Source: Gammaproteobacteria bacterium (GTDB lineage: Bacteria; Pseudomonadota; Gammaproteobacteria; JAJPIJ01). Taken from it: 64,000 nt of DNA. Made by a program: the position numbers and the translations under genes. Location of the stretch: contig DATJVC010000025.1 in the NCBI GenBank assembly GCA_035501935.1, positions 8,905 to 72,904 on the forward strand, given 5' to 3'. Below are positions 3,002 through 49,841 of this stretch, piece by piece. The number at the start of each line of letters is the position of its first letter. Within the stretch, counting starts at the first letter, position 1. The notes beneath the pieces are model-generated. The model had not been told where the DNA came from. It made no database searches and saw nothing but the letters and a program-made list of their open reading frames with translations.

Positions 3002-4027
3002 ATGCCCATGCCTCCCGTGCTACCACGGCTTCGACTGGCCGCCTGCCTGCTGACTGGAATGTGTTTCGCGACACCCTGCACCGCCGAGCCCATTGGCACG
3101 CCAGTGGAATTTTCGCAAAAAATAAAAACCGGCGGCCATTACATGCACGTTCGTCCGATGGGTATGTTGCGTTTGTCCAATACGCCGGTGGATGGCCTGC
3201 CCGCCAATGAATTATCCGGACTGGCCTGGGATGAGGACGAGCAATTGCTTTATGCCGTTTCCGACAAGGGTCATCTTGTGCATTTACGCCCGCAGTTCAA
3301 GGACGGCGTGCTCGTCGGCGCGGAGTTCCTGCACGCCTATCCGCTGCTTGACGGGCGCGGTCACAAACTCAAGCGCGGCATGGCGGACGCGGAGGATCTG
3401 GCCATACGCAATGCGCAAAACGGCAAGCGCGGCGACAGCGAACTGGTGATTTCGTTTGAAGGCGTCCCGCGCCTGGAGCGTTACCGTCCCGATGGTACCT
3501 GGCTGGGCGGGGAATCGCTGCCCGAGGTGCTGAGCGATGGACGCAATTATGAGGGCAAGAATGCGGAACTGGAGGCAGTGGCCTTGCATCCCACCTTTGG
3601 CCTGCTGACGGCGCCACAAAAGCCCCTGAAGATTGATTCGCCGGGCCTGATGAGTTTGTATGCGCAATCCGGGCGCCAGTGGCAATTCGAGCCCATTGAC
3701 GCCGAAGACAGCGATATCGTTGGCATGGCCGTCACACCGAAAAACGAAGTGCTGATTCTGGAGCGCCGTTACAAGAATTTCTTCATGCCCATCATATTCG
3801 CCGTACGCCGCGTTCGTCTGGAGGAACACCCGGAGGGCGGCCTCCTGACGGTGGAGGACGTTGCCCGCTTCAGCAACACCGACGGATTCCAGATCGACAA
3901 CTTTGAGGGACTTGCCCATCACCAGGGCAACCGGTATTTCATGGTGAGCGACGACAACAACAGCGCCATACAGCGAACCCTGCTGCTCTACTTCGAGATC
4001 GACGACCCGCCGGTCAGCGGAAAATGA
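3002..4027 (+). CDS. Secreted protein, esterase-like-activity-of-phytase family (beta-propeller-like)
   Basis: Signal peptide. Repeated ...SGLAWD... and NFEGLAHH... motifs typical of PF13449-type proteins. Confidence 0.45.
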   Translation: MPMPPVLPRLRLAACLLTGMCFATPCTAEPIGTPVEFSQKIKTGGHYMHVRPMGMLRLSNTPVDGLPANELSGLAWDEDEQLLYAVSDKGHLVHLRPQFKDGVLVGAEFLHAYPLLDGRGHKLKRGMADAEDLAIRNAQNGKRGDSELVISFEGVPRLERYRPDGTWLGGESLPEVLSDGRNYEGKNAELEAVALHPTFGLLTAPQKPLKIDSPGLMSLYAQSGRQWQFEPIDAEDSDIVGMAVTPKNEVLILERRYKNFFMPIIFAVRRVRLEEHPEGGLLTVEDVARFSNTDGFQIDNFEGLAHHQGNRYFMVSDDNNSAIQRTLLLYFEIDDPPVSGK

Positions 4028-4361: not shown

Positions 4362-4880
4362 TCATTTTTTTTCCTGCAGGCGGGGCATGAGTTCCACCAG
4401 ATTGCATGGGCGGTTGCGGTAATCCAGCTGTTCGCCTATGAGCTTGTCCCAAGCCAGCGCGCAGGCGCCCGGCGACCCTGGCAGGCTAAAGACATAAGTG
4501 CCATTGGCCACCCCTGCCAGGGCGCGGGATTGCAAGGCCGAGGTCTTGATCTCCGCAAACGACAGGACGCGGAATAATTCACCGAAACCTTCGATGATCT
4601 TGTCCAGCAACGGTCGCACCGCTTCCGGCGTGCCGTCGCGGCCGGTGAGCCCGGTGCCGCCGGTAATCAGCACGACGTCAATTTCCTTGCGCGCGATCCA
4701 TTCCGACACCGCCGCGCGGATGCGGTGGACATCGTCCGGAACAATGCGCTTGTCACGCAATTGATGGCCCGTGCGTTGCAGGCGCTCCACCAGCAGCCCG
4801 CCGGATTTGTCGGTTTCCTCCGTGCGGGTATCCGATACTGTCAACACCGCAATACCGACTGGCGTGAATTGCCGTTCCAT
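4362..4880 (-). CDS. moaB: Molybdenum cofactor biosynthesis protein B (MoaB/MogA family)
   Basis: GIAVLTVSDTR...VVLITGGTGLTGRD...YVFSLPGSPGA motifs. Confidence 0.8.
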   Translation of the reverse strand: MERQFTPVGIAVLTVSDTRTEETDKSGGLLVERLQRTGHQLRDKRIVPDDVHRIRAAVSEWIARKEIDVVLITGGTGLTGRDGTPEAVRPLLDKIIEGFGELFRVLSFAEIKTSALQSRALAGVANGTYVFSLPGSPGACALAWDKLIGEQLDYRNRPCNLVELMPRLQEKK

Positions 4881-4925
4881 ATCATCTCCCGCCGTCATGG
4901 TAATACAAGCCCGCCCACGGTTTCA

Positions 4926-5531
4926 TCATGCGCGGATGCCCGCGCCCCAGTCAGACTCAAAGAAAGATTCCTGCAATGGACGGCGTTCACGCCGCGCGTA
5001 TTCGCGCTCCTTCAACTCGGCGGGGATCGCCGGTTCCGCAAGCTGATAACCCACGGCGATCATCGCCATCGGCGTGTATCGATCCGGAATCTTGAATTCG
5101 CGCCGCGCCCGGCCACTGTCAAAACCACCCATCTGATGCACTGTCAGGCCCAGTGCGGTGGCCTGCAGGGCCAGGCTGATCGCCGCCGCACCGGTGTCAT
5201 ATTGCCCCCAGCGGTTCGGTGAACCGTCACGGGTCAGCACGCTGTCGGCGCATGCCAGCATCAGCACCGGTGCGTGTCGTGCCCAGGCCTTGTTGCCTTC
5301 GACAAGACAATCCCGGGCCCGCTGCCAGGCGGCGACGTCGCTCATTTTGTCCCAAACAATAAACCGCCACGGCTGATCGCCGTAGCAGGATGGCGCCCAG
5401 CGCGCCGCCTCCAGCAAGGCGGTGATTTTCACGCGTTCCACGGGCCGATACGGATCAAAGGCGCGGCCGCTCCAGCGGCTGGCAAGCAACTCATGAATGG
5501 GTTGTGCGGCATCAATGGGCTTTTTGAACAT
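4926..5531 (-). CDS. Nitroreductase family protein
   Basis: RWSGRAF...EAARWAPS...QPWRF nitroreductase motifs. Start MFKKPID with GGAG 6 nt upstream. Confidence 0.75.
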   Translation of the reverse strand: MFKKPIDAAQPIHELLASRWSGRAFDPYRPVERVKITALLEAARWAPSCYGDQPWRFIVWDKMSDVAAWQRARDCLVEGNKAWARHAPVLMLACADSVLTRDGSPNRWGQYDTGAAAISLALQATALGLTVHQMGGFDSGRARREFKIPDRYTPMAMIAVGYQLAEPAIPAELKEREYARRERRPLQESFFESDWGAGIRA

Positions 5532-34671: not shown

Positions 34672-34758
34672 TGGTGCCCAGGGCCGGACTCGAACCGGCA
34701 CGGGGTTTCCCCCAAGGGATTTTAAGTCCCTTGCGTCTACCTGTTCCGCCACCCGGGC
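34672..34758 (-). tRNA. tRNA-Leu (anticodon TAA)
   Basis: Cloverleaf with a long variable arm, 7-nt loop CUUAAAA, CCA end. Confidence 0.85.
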
Positions 34759-34801
34759 TGACACGTACTGGCAAATTATAGGTGATCGTTGATGCAGAAA
34801 G

Positions 34802-34875
34802 TGGAGGCTGGAGTCGGAATCGAACCGGCGTACACGGATTTGCAGTCCGCTGCATGACCACTCTGCCATCCAGCC
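34802..34875 (-). tRNA. tRNA-Cys (anticodon GCA)
   Basis: Cloverleaf, loop CUGCAAA, CCA end. Confidence 0.85.
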
Positions 34876-34931
34876 TTGATAAATGTCGGGTGCCCGCCAG
34901 GCGCACCCCCGAAGCACACCGATTAAAAAAG

Positions 34932-34953
34932 AAAACCCCGATGCCGGGGTTTT
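34932..34953. terminator. Palindromic hairpin aaaaccccgatgccggggtttt between tRNA-Gly and tRNA-Cys (bidirectional terminator-like)
   Basis: GC stem flanked by an A-run and a T-run. Confidence 0.4.
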
Positions 34954-34965
34954 CTTGGGTCAATC

Positions 34966-35041
<76 letters not shown>

Positions 35042-38134: not shown

Positions 38135-38224
38135 TGGCGGAGAGGGTGGGATTCGAACCCACGGCGGGCTTGCGCCCGCGCCGGTTTTCAAGACCGGTGC
38201 ATTCAACCGCTCTGCCACCTCTCC
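38135..38224 (-). tRNA. tRNA-Ser (anticodon TGA)
   Basis: Cloverleaf with a long variable arm, loop CUUGAAA, CCA end. Confidence 0.85.
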
Positions 38225-40643: not shown

Positions 40644-40661
40644 TTAGTCACTCGACACCCG

Positions 40662-40696
40662 GCCGGCAGTGGACAAGCCGCTGCCGGCTTTTTTTA
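40662..40696. terminator. Bidirectional rho-independent terminator between convergent genes
   Basis: ccggcag...ctgccgg stem followed by TTTTTTTATTTTT. Confidence 0.55.
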
Positions 40697-44906: not shown

Positions 44907-46187
44907 TTATGACTGTCGTGTAATCAACGAAACACCGCCCATGTAAGGCCGCAACACTTCCGGGACGCGGATGCTGCCATCCGCGCTCTGATAATTTTCC
45001 ATCACGGCGATCAACGCCCGGCCCGCGGCCACGCCGGAACCGTTGAGGGTGTGCAGTAGTTCCGTTTTGCCCGTTTCGGGGCTGCGAAAGCGCGCCATCA
45101 TACGCCGGCTTTGAAAATTTTCGAAGTTGCTGCAGGAGGAAATCTCGCGATAGGCGTTCTGGCCCGGCAGCCAGACTTCCAAATCGTAGGTCTTGGCGGC
45201 GGCGAAACCCATGTCGCCGGCGCACAGAGCCACCACGCGGTAAGGCAGCGCCAGCCGTTTCAACACCTCTTCGGCGTGTCCGGTCAACGCCTCCAGCGCA
45301 TCGTAGGATTTTGTAGGCTCAACGAGCTGCACCAGTTCGACTTTTTCGAATTGGTGCTGTCGAATCATGCCACGGGTGTCCTTGCCATAGGAACCCGCCT
45401 CGCTGCGAAAACAAGGGCTGTGGCAGGCGTATTTGCGCGGCAGGGTTTTTACGTCCAGTATGGCATCGCGCGCAATGTTGGTGACCGGCACTTCGGCCGT
45501 CGGAATCAAATAAAAATCCTGTTGCGGCACATGGAATAGATCGGTCTTGAACTTCGGCAACTGACCGGTACCGCGCATGGAATCCGCGTTGACGAGAAAC
45601 GGCACATACACTTCGGTGTAGCCGTGCTCGCGGATGTGCAGGTCCAGCATGAACTGGATGAGTGCCCGCTGCATGCGCGCCAGCGGTCCGGAAAGTACGA
45701 CGAAGCGGCTGCTCGCGATTTTGGCGGCAACGTCGAAATCCATGCCTTCGAGCGCCGCGCCCAGTTCGACATGATCCTTGGGGGCAAAATCGAACTTGGG
45801 CGGCGCGCCCCAGCGCCGCTGTTCCACATTGTCCTCCGGACCCTTGCCATCTGGCACGCCGGCATGCGGCATGTTGGGCAGATGCAGCGCAAATTCATGA
45901 ATGCGTGCCTGCACGTCGGCCAGTTTGTTCTCGGAGGCCGCCAATTGTTCGCCCAGACCAGTGACCTCGGCCATCATCGCCGCCGTGTCCTCGCCCCGCT
46001 TCCTGGCTGCGCCGATGGCCTTGGACTTGCTGTTGCGCGCCGCCTGCAGCTCCTGGGTGCGGACTTGCAGGTCTTTGCGCTCGTCTTCAAGCGCTTTGAT
46101 GGAGACAACGTCGAGGATGAGCCCGCGACGCGCCAGCGCCACGCGGACATCTTCAATATGGCTGCGTAACAGTTGTGGATCCAGCAT
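44907..46187 (-). CDS. serS: Seryl-tRNA synthetase
   Basis: N-terminal coiled-coil arm plus class II core motifs. Confidence 0.9.
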
Positions 46188-46376
46188 GTTTTTCGACGCC
46201 GTCCACCGGACAGGAGAACAGCCCGGCTTGACGAATGGCCATCAATAAATTTTTGCTAGTGTAACGCGGCTTCCAATCAAACGCGATCGCGAACGGCCAA
46301 ATTCGTTGCGGAACTTCCAATTCGTGACCATCTGAGAATCTTGCGCCTGCGGGCCAATTCCATTATTCTTTGAGTC

Positions 46377-46432
46377 ACGGGAGATGGCATTCCTCCCGAT
46401 AACAACCGCCACACGGCTGATGATGCCTGCTT
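46377..46432 (+). ncRNA. Fluoride riboswitch (crcB motif) aptamer, with a candidate terminator hairpin at ~46425-46460
   Basis: GGGAG-AUGGCAUUC-CUCCC (P1) ...AACCGCC... GGCUGAUGAUGCC. The P1 loop GGCAU is complementary to the 3-prime AUGCC (pseudoknot covariation). The downstream hairpin GCCTGCTT...AAGCAGGC shares its left arm with the pseudoknot strand. Confidence 0.7.
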
Positions 46433-46660
46433 GAGTACCCACTGAGGTGCAAAGCAGGCGGCATTATTGTCTCCTTTGTGTCTCGCTTTAAGCAGGAAAA
46501 ACTGCGTGACAGGCACAAAGATTTTCGCAAACACCACGTCTTTGACCGCGGAAGCCATCGCGGCACGCTCCGGAAACAGCCGCGGATTCACTGCCGCGGC
46601 CATAGATTCTTTTGCCCGGGAAAACTACGGACAGTACCCGATATTACCGGAGCGCGATGC

Positions 46661-47062
46661 ATGAGCATGGTTAGCATCATCGCCGTCGGCGCCGGGGCAA
46701 TGCTCGGCGCGTGGTTGCGCTGGTGGCTGGGAATGCTGCTGAATCCCGTTTTTCCGACATTACCGTTGGGAACTCTCGCCTCCAATCTGATCGGAGGATA
46801 CATCATCGGACTTGCCGTCGGCGCCGTGAGCCTTGAACTCGGCCTGCCGCCACAAGCCAGACTGTTCTTGATGACCGGTTTCTGCGGCGGGCTGACGACA
46901 TTCTCCACGTTTTCCGCGGAAACTTTCACTTTGTTCTCGGAAGGACAGATCGCATGGGGAATTGGTGAAGTCCTCATACATGTCAGCGGTTCCCTGCTGG
47001 CAACGACAATGGGGTTTTTCAGCGTGAAAATCCTGCATCATCTGATGGAGGGCCTGCCATGA
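46661..47062 (+). CDS. crcB: Fluoride channel CrcB/Fluc (paralog 1)
   Basis: Four-TM CrcB fold, with GFCGGLTTFSTFS matching the conserved GxxGxxTTFSTF motif. Confidence 0.8.
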   Translation: MSMVSIIAVGAGAMLGAWLRWWLGMLLNPVFPTLPLGTLASNLIGGYIIGLAVGAVSLELGLPPQARLFLMTGFCGGLTTFSTFSAETFTLFSEGQIAWGIGEVLIHVSGSLLATTMGFFSVKILHHLMEGLP

Positions 47063-47463
47063 ATCAACAGCGGCGCGATTGGAGAGTACACGGTCTGGAA
47101 GGTGTGTTTCTGCGGTTCGTCCTGCACGAAAACCGCAAATACAAAGGACAACTGATCTACGACTGGCTCTTGATAAAAGCTAGAAACCTCGGCATTCACG
47201 GTGGATCGGCGTTTCATGGAATCGCCGGTTTCGGCCGCCACGGCGTGTTGCATGAACAGCATTTCTGGGAGTTGTCCGGCGACCTGCCGGTCGAAGTGCG
47301 CTTCATATGCAGCGAAAACGAGGCGGGTAAGCTGCTCGATGCGGTCGAGGAGGCCGGGCTCTCCCTGTTTTACGTGATTTCGCCGGTCAGGTACGGGGTG
47401 ACCGGTGTCCAGAAGACCGAGTTGGTCAAGGCAATGCCTCCGCTAAAGGGGGAAACACAATGA
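47059..47463 (+). CDS. DUF190 (PII-like) protein, a crcB-associated family
   Basis: GIAGFGRHG and a PII-like fold pattern. ATGA overlap with the crcB stop. Confidence 0.7.
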   Translation: MNQQRRDWRVHGLEGVFLRFVLHENRKYKGQLIYDWLLIKARNLGIHGGSAFHGIAGFGRHGVLHEQHFWELSGDLPVEVRFICSENEAGKLLDAVEEAGLSLFYVISPVRYGVTGVQKTELVKAMPPLKGETQ

Positions 47464-48692
47464 CGGAAATCTGGGCGCTGTCGGCGTTGTGGATAGGTTT
47501 GGCGTTGCTCGCCACATTGTTGTCGATCTGGTTCCGGGTCGCCACGGCGCTGTCTGAAATCGTTGTGGGAACCGTGGCACAACTGCTGATCGGCGCATTC
47601 ATCGGGACCGCATTGCTCGCCACTGATTCCATATGGGTCAAATATCTCTCGGGGACAGGTGCAATCGTACTCACGTTCCTCGCCGGCGCCGAACTCGACC
47701 CCGAGGTATTCCGGCGCAAATGGAAGGAGGCGACGGTGGTCGGGCTGATCGGCTTTTTCGCACCGTTCTTCGGATGTGCTGCCGGCGCCTACTGGCTGCT
47801 GGGATGGGGGCACGAACCCAGTCTGCTTGCCGGGATTGCGATGTCCACGACTTCCGTCGCCGTGGTTTATGCAGTGATGCTCGAATTCGGTCTGAACAAG
47901 ACTGAATATGGCAAGACGGTGCTCGCGTCGTGCTTCATCAACGATCTCGGCACGGTGATTGGACTCGGCCTGATCTTTGCGCCCTTCACGTTCAAAACTC
48001 TCGTGTTCGTCGCCGGTATGGCCATGGCGGCGCTGGTACTGCCCTGGTTGACTCCGCGCTTCTTCAGGCGCTACGGCGGGAGGCCATCGGAAATGGAGGC
48101 CAAGTACCTTCTATTGTGTCTCTTCGGCCTCGGGGCGCTGGCCGGCTGGGCTGACAGCGAAGCAGTGCTCCCGGCCTACTTGATAGGAATGGTGCTTGCC
48201 GGCACGGTCGGCAAGGATCACGCTCTGATACGCCGGCTGCGCACGCTCACCTTCGGCCTGCTGACCCCCTTCTATTTCATCCGCGCCGGCTCGTTCGTTT
48301 CGATGCCGGCGCTGATCGCGGCACCGGCGGCCTTTATTGCGATGTTCCTGATAAAAATGGTGACCAAGTTCGCCGGCATCTACCCGGTCACCAAGGCTTT
48401 TCGCTCGCCGCAGAAAGAGAGTCTCTATACGACATTGCTGATGTCAACGGGCCTGACCTTCGGTACGATCTCCTCACTTTTCGGGCTGTCGCATGGGATA
48501 ATCAACCAGGCGCAGTATTCAGCACTGGTCGCGGCGGTGGTCGCCAGCGCGGTGATCCCCACCCTCATCGCGAATGCCTGGTTCCTGCCGCACCATTTGC
48601 TGCCCAAGCCGGGGAATGCGGTCGAAGAAAAAACAGGACACGGCATGTCGCCACTGCCGGCGGGAAAACCAGCACGGGCCAATACGGGATAA
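47460..48692 (+). CDS. Cation:proton antiporter (CPA/Na+-H+ exchanger membrane domain)
   Basis: 12 or more TM helices, with motifs LATDSIWV...GAELD typical of NhaP/KefB-type exchangers. Confidence 0.75.
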   Translation: MTEIWALSALWIGLALLATLLSIWFRVATALSEIVVGTVAQLLIGAFIGTALLATDSIWVKYLSGTGAIVLTFLAGAELDPEVFRRKWKEATVVGLIGFFAPFFGCAAGAYWLLGWGHEPSLLAGIAMSTTSVAVVYAVMLEFGLNKTEYGKTVLASCFINDLGTVIGLGLIFAPFTFKTLVFVAGMAMAALVLPWLTPRFFRRYGGRPSEMEAKYLLLCLFGLGALAGWADSEAVLPAYLIGMVLAGTVGKDHALIRRLRTLTFGLLTPFYFIRAGSFVSMPALIAAPAAFIAMFLIKMVTKFAGIYPVTKAFRSPQKESLYTTLLMSTGLTFGTISSLFGLSHGIINQAQYSALVAAVVASAVIPTLIANAWFLPHHLLPKPGNAVEEKTGHGMSPLPAGKPARANTG

Positions 48693-48695
48693 CCC

Positions 48696-49112
48696 ATGTA
48701 CCGGAAAATTTTGATCGCCTACGATGGCTCCGAACCCGGCAGAAAGGCGTTCAACATGGCACTTGACCTCGCCGTCAGAGACAAGGCCGATTTGTACGTG
48801 CTGTCCGTGGTGAGGACGCTCGATGTCGCGGACGACGTTGAGACTGAAGCAGTGATCGAAAACTCGCGCGCGTACCACACCGAACAATTTGCGCTGCTCA
48901 AACATCTCATTTCGGAAAAAGGCATCAAGGGGCATTTCGAGGTTACCGTGGGCCATCCGGCAGAACAAATCATCTACAGCGCCGACCGGCATGATGTGGA
49001 CCTGATAGTCATTGGCCATCGGGGACGATCGAAGTTCGCGCGGCTTCTGCTGGGGTCCGTGTCAAAAAATGTGGTGCAGTATGCCGACCGGCCGGTTATG
49101 GTGGTCCGGTGA
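48696..49112 (+). CDS. uspA: Universal stress protein (UspA family)
   Basis: ATP-binding type Usp motifs (ILIAYDGS..., VIGHRGRS.....LGSVS). Confidence 0.75.
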   Translation: MYRKILIAYDGSEPGRKAFNMALDLAVRDKADLYVLSVVRTLDVADDVETEAVIENSRAYHTEQFALLKHLISEKGIKGHFEVTVGHPAEQIIYSADRHDVDLIVIGHRGRSKFARLLLGSVSKNVVQYADRPVMVVR

Positions 49113-49135
49113 CGCACTCGCCTTGAGAGCAAACC

Positions 49136-49510
49136 GTGAAGGACGTGATCTGGATTGCACTCGGCGCGGTCGTCGGAGCGAACCTGCGCTATGCGATCAA
49201 CCGTCTGGCGCTGAAACACCTTTCCGCGTCGGTCCCTTATGGGACCCTGATAGTCAACGTCACGGGCAGTTTTATTCTCGGCTTCTTTCTCGCCTGGACC
49301 GCAGAACGCGTGCTGGCGGATCCACGCTGGCGCGCGCTGGTCGCGGTGGGTTTCTGCGGCGCCTACACGACCTATTCCAGCTACAGCTACGAGACGGTCG
49401 CGTTGCTGGAGCAGGGGCATTATGGCCTTGCGACAATGAATTTTTTCGCCAATAATCTCCTGTCACTTCTCGGAGTAGTCGCCGGCATGGTTCTGGCGCG
49501 GACCATCTGA
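49136..49510 (+). CDS. crcB: Fluoride channel CrcB/Fluc (paralog 2)
   Basis: CrcB fold with GFCGAYTTYSSYS. Sequence is divergent from paralog 1. Confidence 0.8.
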   Translation: MKDVIWIALGAVVGANLRYAINRLALKHLSASVPYGTLIVNVTGSFILGFFLAWTAERVLADPRWRALVAVGFCGAYTTYSSYSYETVALLEQGHYGLATMNFFANNLLSLLGVVAGMVLARTI

Positions 49511-49511
49511 C

Positions 49512-49841
49512 ATGAGCCGCGAATTCGTCCGCGTATCGGTGTATATCAATGAAGCCGATGAATGGCATCACCGGCCGCTCCATCTTGAAGTGTTGCGCAT
49601 GCTGCACGACCGCGGCGTGGCGGGCGGCACAGTGTTGCGCGCCGTCGCCGGCTTCACCGGGAAAGGCGGCGTGGAGACCACTTCGCTCGTCGATGCCGGC
49701 GGCAAACTGCCGCTGGTGATCGAGTTTATCGATGCAATGGAAAAAATCGGACGTGTGATGCCAGAACTGAAAAAAATGGTCGGCCATCGACTCATTGTGC
49801 ATGAACAGGTCGAAGTCGATGACACTGAAAGGCCGGGTTGA
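49512..49841 (+). CDS. DUF190 (PII-like) protein, second copy
   Basis: VAGFTGKGG motif, paralogous to the 47059-47463 product. Confidence 0.7.
   Translation: MSREFVRVSVYINEADEWHHRPLHLEVLRMLHDRGVAGGTVLRAVAGFTGKGGVETTSLVDAGGKLPLVIEFIDAMEKIGRVMPELKKMVGHRLIVHEQVEVDDTERPG

Follow-up and report, generated by a model that had tools for sequence, protein, structure and literature searches.

We uncovered a predicted fluoride-resistance (fluoride-response) operon in an uncultured gammaproteobacterium, in a 64-kb stretch of DNA that we refer to as the window and whose positions are used throughout. The operon comprises six genes, which code in order for a CrcB fluoride channel, a DUF190 protein, a Na+/H+ exchanger family protein, a universal stress protein (Usp), a second CrcB and a second DUF190 protein, with all six family assignments exceeding the Pfam cut-offs (Table 1). 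The genes are tightly packed, their adjacent starts and stops either overlapping or lying 1–23 nt apart, and the CrcB protein of the first gene is identical to an NCBI entry from a gammaproteobacterial metagenome-assembled genome that is named fluoride efflux transporter CrcB. Nevskia, Steroidobacteraceae and unclassified Gammaproteobacteria are its closest relatives. On its upstream side it is flanked by a divergently oriented serS gene (44907–46187, minus strand), and between the two, on the same strand as the six genes and upstream of all of them, lies an aptamer of the fluoride riboswitch (crcB motif) class. ORF, composition and Pfam checks of the interval between the aptamer and the first crcB yielded no further gene with support. 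An antisense 108-aa ORF (46277–46603), which is called as a gene in one record of the same strain (L161), was dismissed as spurious, given its antisense course across the aptamer and its lack of coding composition.

Table 1. Features of the riboswitch, the leader and the operon, in window coordinates
Feature	Coordinates	Strand	Basis or remark
Putative sigma-70 promoter	46341..46369	+	-35 TTGCGC (46341-46), 17-nt spacer, -10 TATTCT (46364-69)
Fluoride riboswitch aptamer (crcB motif)	46371..46436	+	Rfam RF01734; 90% identical to L001
P1 stem-loop GGGAG/CUCCC	46379..46397	+	Rfam alignment structure line and direct reading
Second aptamer helix GCC/GGC, loop ACAC	46408..46417	+	Rfam alignment
Hairpin 1, pseudoknot competitor	46418..46466	+	Predicted minimum-energy fold, about -25 kcal/mol
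Pseudoknot 3′ strand AUGCC	46423..46427	+	Pairs with 46386-46390; direct reading
Pyrimidine-rich tail UUGUCUCCUUUGUGU 3′ of hairpin 1	46467..46481	+	No more than a weak, non-canonical U tract
Candidate leader ORF	46467..46664	+	Start UUG 46467 (AUG in L001) or GUG 46506
Hairpin 2, CUUUGUGUCU (46474-83) with AGGCACAAAG (46511-20)	46474..46520	+	Predicted by RNAalifold
Hairpin 3, UCGCGGC (46558-64) with GCCGCGG (46579-85)	46558..46585	+	Predicted by two-sequence RNAalifold
crcB ribosome-binding region CCGGAGCG, SD GGAG 46649-52	46647..46654	+	Predicted 8-bp helix with 46566-73
crcB, fluoride channel, 133 aa	46661..47062	+	Pfam PF02537, 3.8e-28
DUF190 gene	47059..47463	+	PF02641, 9e-19; start overlaps crcB stop by 4 nt
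Na+/H+ exchanger family gene	47460..48692	+	PF00999, 6e-36; start overlaps DUF190 stop by 4 nt
Universal stress protein (Usp) gene	48696..49112	+	PF00582, 5e-35
Second crcB	49136..49510	+	PF02537, 4e-29
Second DUF190 gene, last in cluster	49512..49841	+	PF02641, 1e-28

For comparison, we sought leaders homologous to that of the window in a search covering genome and metagenome scans and individual contigs, and recovered them only in the window's own strain (L161 and L162, both identical), in the locus L001 (the same as L081) and in the locus L002; the loci L163–L165 were without a riboswitch. As the neutral level of divergence we used the four-fold degenerate sites of crcB, which are 50% identical between the window and L001, the CrcB proteins of the two being 82% identical. 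Against this level, the segment 46335–46378, which spans a putative sigma-70 promoter, is 75% identical to L001, and the TTGCGCC at the -35 position together with most of the -10 element is kept in both L001 and L002. This promoter was not listed by the scan tool because, with 8 of 12 consensus positions, it falls below the threshold of that tool. Judging from its placement, the transcript would begin near A46377, just before P1.

The assignment of the aptamer rests on an Rfam search of the entire window at gathering thresholds, which returned four tRNAs and RF01734 and nothing else. At 51.1 bits, the RF01734 match is well above its gathering threshold of 34; the E-value is 3e-11 over the 64-kb window and 2.2e-13 when only the local region is scanned, and the alignment is full-length, covering model positions 1–64 of 64. 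In P1, G46379–G46383 pair with C46393–C46397, which corresponds to the consensus GGAG/CUCC with one additional G-C pair, and the P1 loop AUGGCAUUC contains the 5′ strand of the pseudoknot, GGCAU (46386–46390). The second helix pairs G46408–C46410 with G46415–C46417, and the conserved joining sequences GAUGG, AACCGCC and GGCUGAUGA are all present. Hence, the aptamer displays each defining feature of RF01734 that can be assessed from sequence, and we consider it almost certain that this is a genuine riboswitch of the fluoride (crcB-motif) class (Weinberg et al. 2010, PMC2864571; Baker et al. 2012). An earlier note on this DNA, made from the letters alone, had proposed a fluoride riboswitch here and had named a sub-threshold Infernal score as the outcome that would speak against it; the score lies above the threshold and, therefore, the proposal stands. 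Likewise, the 49-nt segment quoted in that note, with its P1, AACCGCC and conserved core, was found at 46379–46427, and the interval 46377–46460 that it had given for the riboswitch with its overlapping hairpin is right to within 1–2 nt.

The pseudoknot GGCAU/AUGCC, which had been noted before, consists of five Watson–Crick pairs, and in two of them both sides are altered relative to the Rfam consensus GGaGU/ACUCC. Thus, the compensatory changes formerly read into this pseudoknot are real in that two pairs differ on both sides. They are not specific to this locus: among 26 distinct platform sequences, that of the window being one, the same GGCAU/AUGCC pair of strands occurs in 25, with GGGGU/ACUCC seen in L128 only. 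The two strands covary between these versions, and on this comparison GGCAU/AUGCC is the common proteobacterial form of the pseudoknot rather than a peculiarity of the window.

The 3′ strand of this pseudoknot is also claimed by a predicted hairpin (hairpin 1), the core of which had earlier been described as GCCUGCUU(n19)AAGCAGGC. This core is indeed found at 46425–46459, its arms GCCTGCTT (46425–46432) and AAGCAGGC (46452–46459) being separated by exactly 19 nt. In the predicted fold, the core helix UGCCUGCUU/AAGCAGGCG is continued by an inner helix, GUACC/GGUGC, and by an outer helix in which UGAUG (46418–22) pairs with CAUUA (46462–66), the whole amounting to -25.5 kcal/mol. The hairpin occupies U46424–C46427, four of the five bases of the pseudoknot strand, along with the conserved UGAUG, and its 3′ end, GGCAUUA, resembles the P1-loop strand GGCAUUC. 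With a z-score of -2.5 to -2.9 against dinucleotide shuffles, the significance of hairpin 1 as a single sequence is modest; the better evidence for it is its conservation across relatives. With the GCC in the 3′ strand of the pseudoknot constrained to pair downstream, every one of 26 distinct proteobacterial fluoride leaders, the window's among them, forms a pseudoknot-anchored hairpin, and the sequences that form it on the 3′ side vary by lineage (GCCUGCUU/AAGCAGGC, GCCUACG/CGUAGGC, GCCUACAGA/UCUGUAGGC, GAUGCC/GGCAUC and others). Further, outside the aptamer, hairpin 1 shares 82% identity with L001, compared with 50% for the four-fold sites of crcB.

The structures discussed throughout are thermodynamic predictions. 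In constrained folding, the aptamer-folded and aptamer-free states of the leader differ only in the outer part of hairpin 1. The mutual exclusion of the pseudoknot and hairpin 1 is well supported by the comparison of the 26 leaders and of L001. A mutually exclusive arrangement of this kind, which likewise characterizes the published ON-switch design (PMC2864571, PMC11077080), leads to an ON-switch logic for the window riboswitch that is also well supported, and here the earlier note, which had the hairpin take over the 3′ strand of the pseudoknot in just such a design, is borne out by both the predicted fold and the 26 leaders. In the presence of bound fluoride, the pseudoknot (46386–90 with 46423–27) and the UGAUGA core would be held within the aptamer. 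In its absence, GGCAUUA (46460–66) and AAGCAGGC would displace the pseudoknot, resulting in the formation of hairpin 1 (46418–66).

What sets this locus apart is the distance that such a switch would have to act across. The ATG of crcB at 46661 is positioned 232 nt past U46428, which comes immediately 3′ of the pseudoknot strand, in keeping with the earlier estimate of about 230 nt and with its being called longer than usual: full predicted fluoride switches averaged 98 nt, and for 82% of 1901 the synthesis limit of roughly 300 nt was enough to take in a start codon (PMC12667848). The leader in between is not uniform. Its identity to L001 is 70% over 46467–46530 and 66% over 46531–46595, falling to 44% over 46596–46660; by this comparison the segment 46467–46595 is conserved above the neutral level of 50%, and the last 65 nt are at the neutral level. 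No other Rfam family was found in the leader, the only further matches being chance-level ones to snoRNAs and miRNAs.

Two further predicted hairpins fall within the conserved part of the leader. In the RNAalifold model built from the window, L001 and L002, hairpin 2 has 18 pairs, of which five are changed on both sides, and it encloses an SD-like AGGA (46494–97) and a GUG (46506–08) that are conserved in the three lineages; the motif GTGRCAGGCRCAA within it is confined to the lineage of the window. It is predicted to be stable with or without a folded aptamer. Hairpin 3 shows two compensatory pairs, one a change from G-C to A-U and the other from C-G to U-A, and carries in its loop CGCUCCGG (46566–73), which is complementary to the ribosome-binding site of crcB. 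This covariation evidence is thin because only two or three homologous leaders were found. By way of the 8-bp helix with CGCUCCGG, the SD of crcB is predicted to be locked, the probability of GGAG being unpaired coming to 0.0 in the aptamer-free as well as the aptamer-folded model. The locking helix (46566–73 with 46647–54) is not conserved in L001, and a second copy of AAGCAGG (46490–96), considered as an alternative pairing partner, is not kept there either. In the constrained folding, hairpin 2, the region of the candidate leader-ORF start and the SD of crcB are all predicted to stay closed in both states.

The leader also features a candidate ORF, the UGA stop of which overlaps the AUG of crcB (AUGA). 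Its frame is open in the window, L001 and L002, and a 55-aa ORF that shares 4 nt with crcB has been called in another relative. Of the two possible starts, the UUG at 46467 has a weak SD (AGGCGG), and its predicted accessibility is not raised by folding of the aptamer; the GUG at 46506 is preceded by AGGA with an 8-nt spacer, an arrangement kept in the window, L001 and L002. As a conserved protein, this ORF was rejected on the grounds of codon changes, GC composition and Pfam. Relative to L001, the differences are evenly spread over the three codon positions (14/10/13), with 4 synonymous versus 20 non-synonymous codon changes and an amino-acid identity of about 47% at a nucleotide identity of about 70%. 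Its GC content by codon position (0.45/0.56/0.59) displays a GC3 pattern unlike that of the genes of the window, the search for a Pfam match came back empty, and in this GC-rich leader the remaining frames, too, are frequently open. Given this lack of a coding signature, only the act of translation could matter if the leader ORF were translated.

A possible origin for this arrangement emerges from sister loci with related riboswitch platforms. In six of these (L005, L006, L085, L137, L166 and L175), the 3′ arm of the pseudoknot-competing hairpin contains a strong SD, GGAGGAAG, and a GUG start; with the SD and start inside the hairpin, these loci are plain translational ON switches. Hairpin 1 aligns column by column with this SD/GUG hairpin: the MAFFT alignment places the GAGGUGCAAAGCAGGCGGCAU of the window opposite GGGAGG--AAGUUGUGGGCAU of the sister loci, with the GUG having become AGG in both the window and L001. 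In the sister loci, the riboswitch gates leader ORFs of 10–45 codons (VGIPVDHPTP* and variants) that precede the main gene, and in L006, L085 and L166 there is an overlap between the stop codon of this ORF and the AUG that starts the Na+/H+ exchanger gene, which has no SD of its own. In L005, a frameshifted usp is found at the position of the leader ORF. Together, the sister-locus leader ORFs and the frameshifted usp suggest decay of the ancestral first gene in several lineages, and the window seems to represent an apparent rewiring of the platform after the loss of the ancestral start codon. Searches with tblastn for a usp, DUF190, exchanger or RadC remnant in the leaders of the window, L001 and L002 were negative, and hence we rejected the idea that the leader is itself a recognizable gene remnant, the frameshifted usp of L005 being the only such case. 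For crcB in the window, an SD and start inside the competing hairpin are absent (its SD at 46649–52 lies 183 nt past hairpin 1); what stands directly 3′ of hairpin 1 is the UUG at 46467, with AGG in the 3′ arm of the hairpin.

The identity of the aptamer, the competition between the pseudoknot and hairpin 1, and the presence of a fluoride-response operon downstream are thus established or strongly supported; how hairpin 1 lowers expression is the step that we infer. We tentatively propose that hairpin 1 is a sequestering hairpin whose origin lies in a translational platform and which would now act on events in the long leader. One possible target is initiation at the UUG at 46467 (AUG in L001), from where the leader ORF would run into the AUG of crcB through the AUGA overlap. 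The other, which might operate in addition or instead, is Rho-type polarity on an otherwise untranslated 200-nt leader, possibly with a little weak termination as well. The sequestering origin is favored because hairpin 1 aligns with the SD/GUG hairpin of the sister loci, and an involvement of the leader is favored because of its conservation, the covarying hairpins 2 and 3, the predicted locking of the SD by a helix inside the leader ORF, the start codon placed alike in the window and L001 with a frame open as far as the AUGA, and the short leader ORFs of the sister loci. Counted against an output through the leader ORF are the weak SD, the UUG start, the missing coding signature and the unchanged accessibility of the UUG. 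The leader, moreover, has a C/G ratio of 1.2–1.4 and is heavily structured, which is not typical of a Rho loading site; a screen for such a site by composition gave ratios of 0.8–1.4. Two further observations weigh against the proposal, namely that the tail following hairpin 1 is the most U-rich of the 26 compared and that the base of hairpin 1, the part predicted to toggle, adjoins this tail, as it does in transcriptional fluoride riboswitches.

These last observations bear on the main rival, which is also where we part from the earlier note and its labeling of the hairpin as a terminator. Under this alternative, hairpin 1 and UUGUCUCCUUU would constitute a Rho-independent terminator that is blocked by the fluoride-stabilized pseudoknot, making for a transcriptional ON switch. 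The published design does have the pseudoknot 3′ strand as the base of the terminator stem (PMC11077080, PMC2864571), and the stem of hairpin 1 overlaps that strand in the same way. The hairpin is strong at -25 kcal/mol, the tail contains 8 U in 15 nt, 4 of them within the first 6, and its T score of 2.64 is the highest among the 26 sequences compared; the loss in the aptamer-folded model is confined to the part of the stem base that adjoins this tail, and a transcriptional output would be the simplest action across the 195 nt to the start of crcB. Nevertheless, no U run follows the hairpin, and hairpin 1 with its tail UUGUCUCCUUUGUGU is absent from the terminator-scan calls in the window. In a d'Aubenton-Carafa-type scoring, the extended hairpin comes out at d = -19.8 and the core at -54.9, compared with +63 (40661–89) and +6 (34956–29, minus strand) for two canonical terminators in the window, the positive scores of which indicate that the organism uses classical terminators. 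A classical terminator would also have a GC-rich stem base directly followed by a U tract, whereas the pairs adjoining the tail of hairpin 1 are U-A, G-U, A-U, U-A and G-C, an AU/GU-rich base with a mismatch.

Nor are the terminator features kept in close relatives: L001 retains the hairpin but its tail CAUGCCUCCCUUGUG is not U-rich (T 0.42, d -63), and none of the 26 sequences compared attains a positive terminator score. The aligned hairpins of the sister loci sequester the SD and start, pointing to translational control. Similarly, the riboswitch sequence of Pseudomonas syringae, represented here by the loci L076, L145 and L151, has a tail-less hairpin of the same kind, and in a published study, where it was the control for a translational riboswitch, it gave an in vitro read-through of about 85–90% with or without fluoride (PMC12667848). 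More generally, a terminator was predicted in only 28% of 1901 fluoride aptamers (PMC12667848). Thus, hairpin 1 is not convincing as a classical terminator from its sequence features, and owing to the missing U run, the negative scores and the tail-less L001 we judge this reading less likely than the sequestering hairpin, and on the whole rather unlikely; the pyrimidine-rich tail of the window may still add some weak termination. Hairpin 2 followed by AUUUUCGC was also considered as a true terminator and rejected, with d = -64 and a U run that is not kept.

A narrower version of the leader-based explanation, in which neither a terminator nor direct sequestration of the crcB SD plays a part, would have fluoride gate the translation of the leader ORF that ends in AUGA at the start of crcB, with the transit of the ribosome both opening the locked ribosome-binding site of crcB and shielding the leader from Rho. 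The structured 200-nt leader would in this case descend from the decayed first gene, with the product of the ORF being irrelevant. We consider this coupled version as a whole doubtful.

The sequestering hairpin acting on leader events, which we prefer, may also be set against a relay that would connect the aptamer to crcB by RNA pairing. Here, the freed 3′ arm of hairpin 1, GGUGCAAAG, would pair with the 5′ arm of hairpin 2, CUUUGUG, and the signal would then travel through hairpins 2 and 3 until the SD (46649–52) is released from CGCUCCGG (46566–73). The CAAAG/CUUUG pairing of the window is matched by CAAGG/CCUUG in L001, a compensatory change, and the minimum-energy prediction for L001 is the arm–arm pairing. 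Covariation of hairpins 2 and 3 and the predicted closure of the SD also speak for a relay, and short relays of this type can be made out by eye in relatives from Nevskia (L003) and Pseudomonas. For the window, such a fold comes out 4–7 kcal/mol worse than a truncated hairpin 1 with hairpin 2, the accessibility of the SD stays at 0.0 in both states, and L001 conserves neither the SD-locking helix nor the last 65 nt, which are at 44%, the neutral level. We therefore set aside a relay that starts at hairpin 1, whether it leads to hairpin 2 or to the crcB SD, as thermodynamically unsupported in the window, with L001 folding differently, and regard it as quite improbable. Finally, it is very improbable that the aptamer is a relic of a first ORF that lost its start codon, with the operon being constitutive or served by another promoter: the start of the aligned platform is indeed replaced in the window and L001 (GUG to AGG), and folding and terminator scoring did not identify a clear output element, but the aptamer is full-length at 51 bits, a promoter-like element is placed to start transcription at P1, and identity to L001 reaches 90% in the aptamer and 82% in the hairpin where neutral sites show 50%, which implies continued selection on both.

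Placing the locus among known systems, the aptamer shares with the crcB-motif riboswitches (RF01734; PMC2864571) the P1, second helix, pseudoknot, core, 5′-UTR position and an overlapping hairpin, and shows no difference from them, apart from the distance to the first gene, which is longer than in most. With the transcriptional switches of Bacillus cereus and Thermotoga petrophila it has in common a pseudoknot 3′ strand that forms the base of the hairpin, and a strand-displacement logic (PMC11077080). Unlike the hairpins of these two, which lead into a true U tract and bring about termination in vitro (PMC11077080), that of the window has the tail UUGUCUCCUUUGUGU, an AU/GU-rich base, sub-threshold scores and a tail-less relative. 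The translational P. syringae eriC and Burkholderia pseudomallei riboswitches, which served as controls in a published study (PMC12667848), resemble the window, as do the sister loci, in the GGCAU/AUGCC variant and in an anchored hairpin without a U tract. From these, the window differs in having no strong SD in the hairpin, with AGG in place of GUG, and in that the first annotated gene comes 195 nt on, with a conserved structured leader in between. At the level of the operon, a parallel is offered by Enterobacter cloacae FRM, in which the riboswitch controls ppaC, uspA, eno, gpmA, crcB as well as orf5249 (PMC5533749). In both cases, one fluoride riboswitch precedes six genes that include crcB and a universal stress protein gene; the operon of the window, however, has two crcB–DUF190 pairs and a Na+/H+ exchanger, and lacks an enolase, a pyrophosphatase and a phosphoglycerate mutase.

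In its basic makeup, therefore, this is one more riboswitch-controlled fluoride-resistance operon, here in an uncultured gammaproteobacterium, and routine Rfam annotation would find it. What appears unusual is the combination of a long, conserved and structured leader with an apparent rewiring of the platform, as seen in two or three homologous sequences. The case also calls for caution in that a hairpin overlapping an aptamer is not automatically a terminator. On a broader scale, the clade keeps the pseudoknot-competing hairpin while the output appears to drift, from sequestration of the SD and start, through mini leader ORFs coupled by AUGA, to a long structured leader. Hence, this set of loci could reveal how a riboswitch platform is rewired upon the decay of the first gene that it regulated.

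In three of the sister loci whose pseudoknot-competing hairpin aligns with hairpin 1 of the window (L085, L006 and L166), the hairpin of the fluoride riboswitch sequesters GGAGGAAG together with the GUG of a 10-codon mini-ORF, whose UGA overlaps the AUG of the Na+/H+ exchanger gene, itself lacking a Shine-Dalgarno sequence of its own. This arrangement looks like termination-reinitiation coupling as a mode of riboswitch control. In a further sister locus, L175, the counterpart of the mini-ORF has 42 codons and its stop lies ~60 nt upstream of crcB. In the Nevskia locus (L003 2203-2290), inspection by eye pointed to a putative four-part relay, GAUGCC / GGCGGCAUC / GAUCCGCCC / GGGUGGGG, which starts with the pseudoknot strand (GAUGCC) and ends with the Shine-Dalgarno sequence of crcB (GGGUGGGG); this locus also displays an 18-codon ORF with a GUG start directly 3′ of the hairpin and an end in the form of an AUGA on crcB.

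Features of the window, including the two intrinsic terminators used as internal positive controls, and mini-ORFs of the sister loci
Feature	Location	Strand
Three-tRNA gene cluster	window 34675-35041	-
Textbook intrinsic terminator, 12-bp stem then T run	window 34929-34956	-
Fourth tRNA gene	window 38138-38224	-
Textbook intrinsic terminator, 12-bp stem then T run	window 40661-40689	+
Mini-ORF VGIPVDHPTP* / hairpin region	L085 ~1635-1670	
Mini-ORF VGLPVDHPLP* / hairpin region	L006 ~3210-3245	
Mini-ORF VGIPSDHLTP* / hairpin region	L166 753-785	

For the two leader hairpins 3′ of the riboswitch (window 46474-46520 and 46558-46585), the two relatives with a homologous leader, L001 and L002, carry base changes that are compensatory, and the motif GTGRCAGGCRCAA found in the window's leader hairpins is restricted to this lineage. 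Compared with the window and L001, the loop of the hairpin that competes with the pseudoknot is enlarged in L002 by a 79-nt insertion (~1885-1965). The AAGCAGG of the 3′ arm of hairpin 1 recurs within hairpin 2 (46490-46496); this second copy is not kept in L001 and is probably due to chance. In the public assembly of the window's own strain (L161), a 108-aa ORF antisense to the aptamer and leader (window 46277-46603, minus strand) is annotated as a gene; it lacks the composition of a coding sequence, and the annotation is probably spurious.

The window operon (46661-49841) features two crcB-DUF190 gene pairs, with genes for the Na+/H+ exchanger and a Usp protein in between, and its two CrcB paralogues might constitute a putative heterodimeric channel. 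In the sister locus L005, a universal-stress-protein gene (4495-4960) is placed between the riboswitch and crcB. Its matches are split over two reading frames, and hence the gene is frameshifted and probably a pseudogene. This case suggests ongoing decay, in several lineages, of the gene that comes first under riboswitch control in this operon family.
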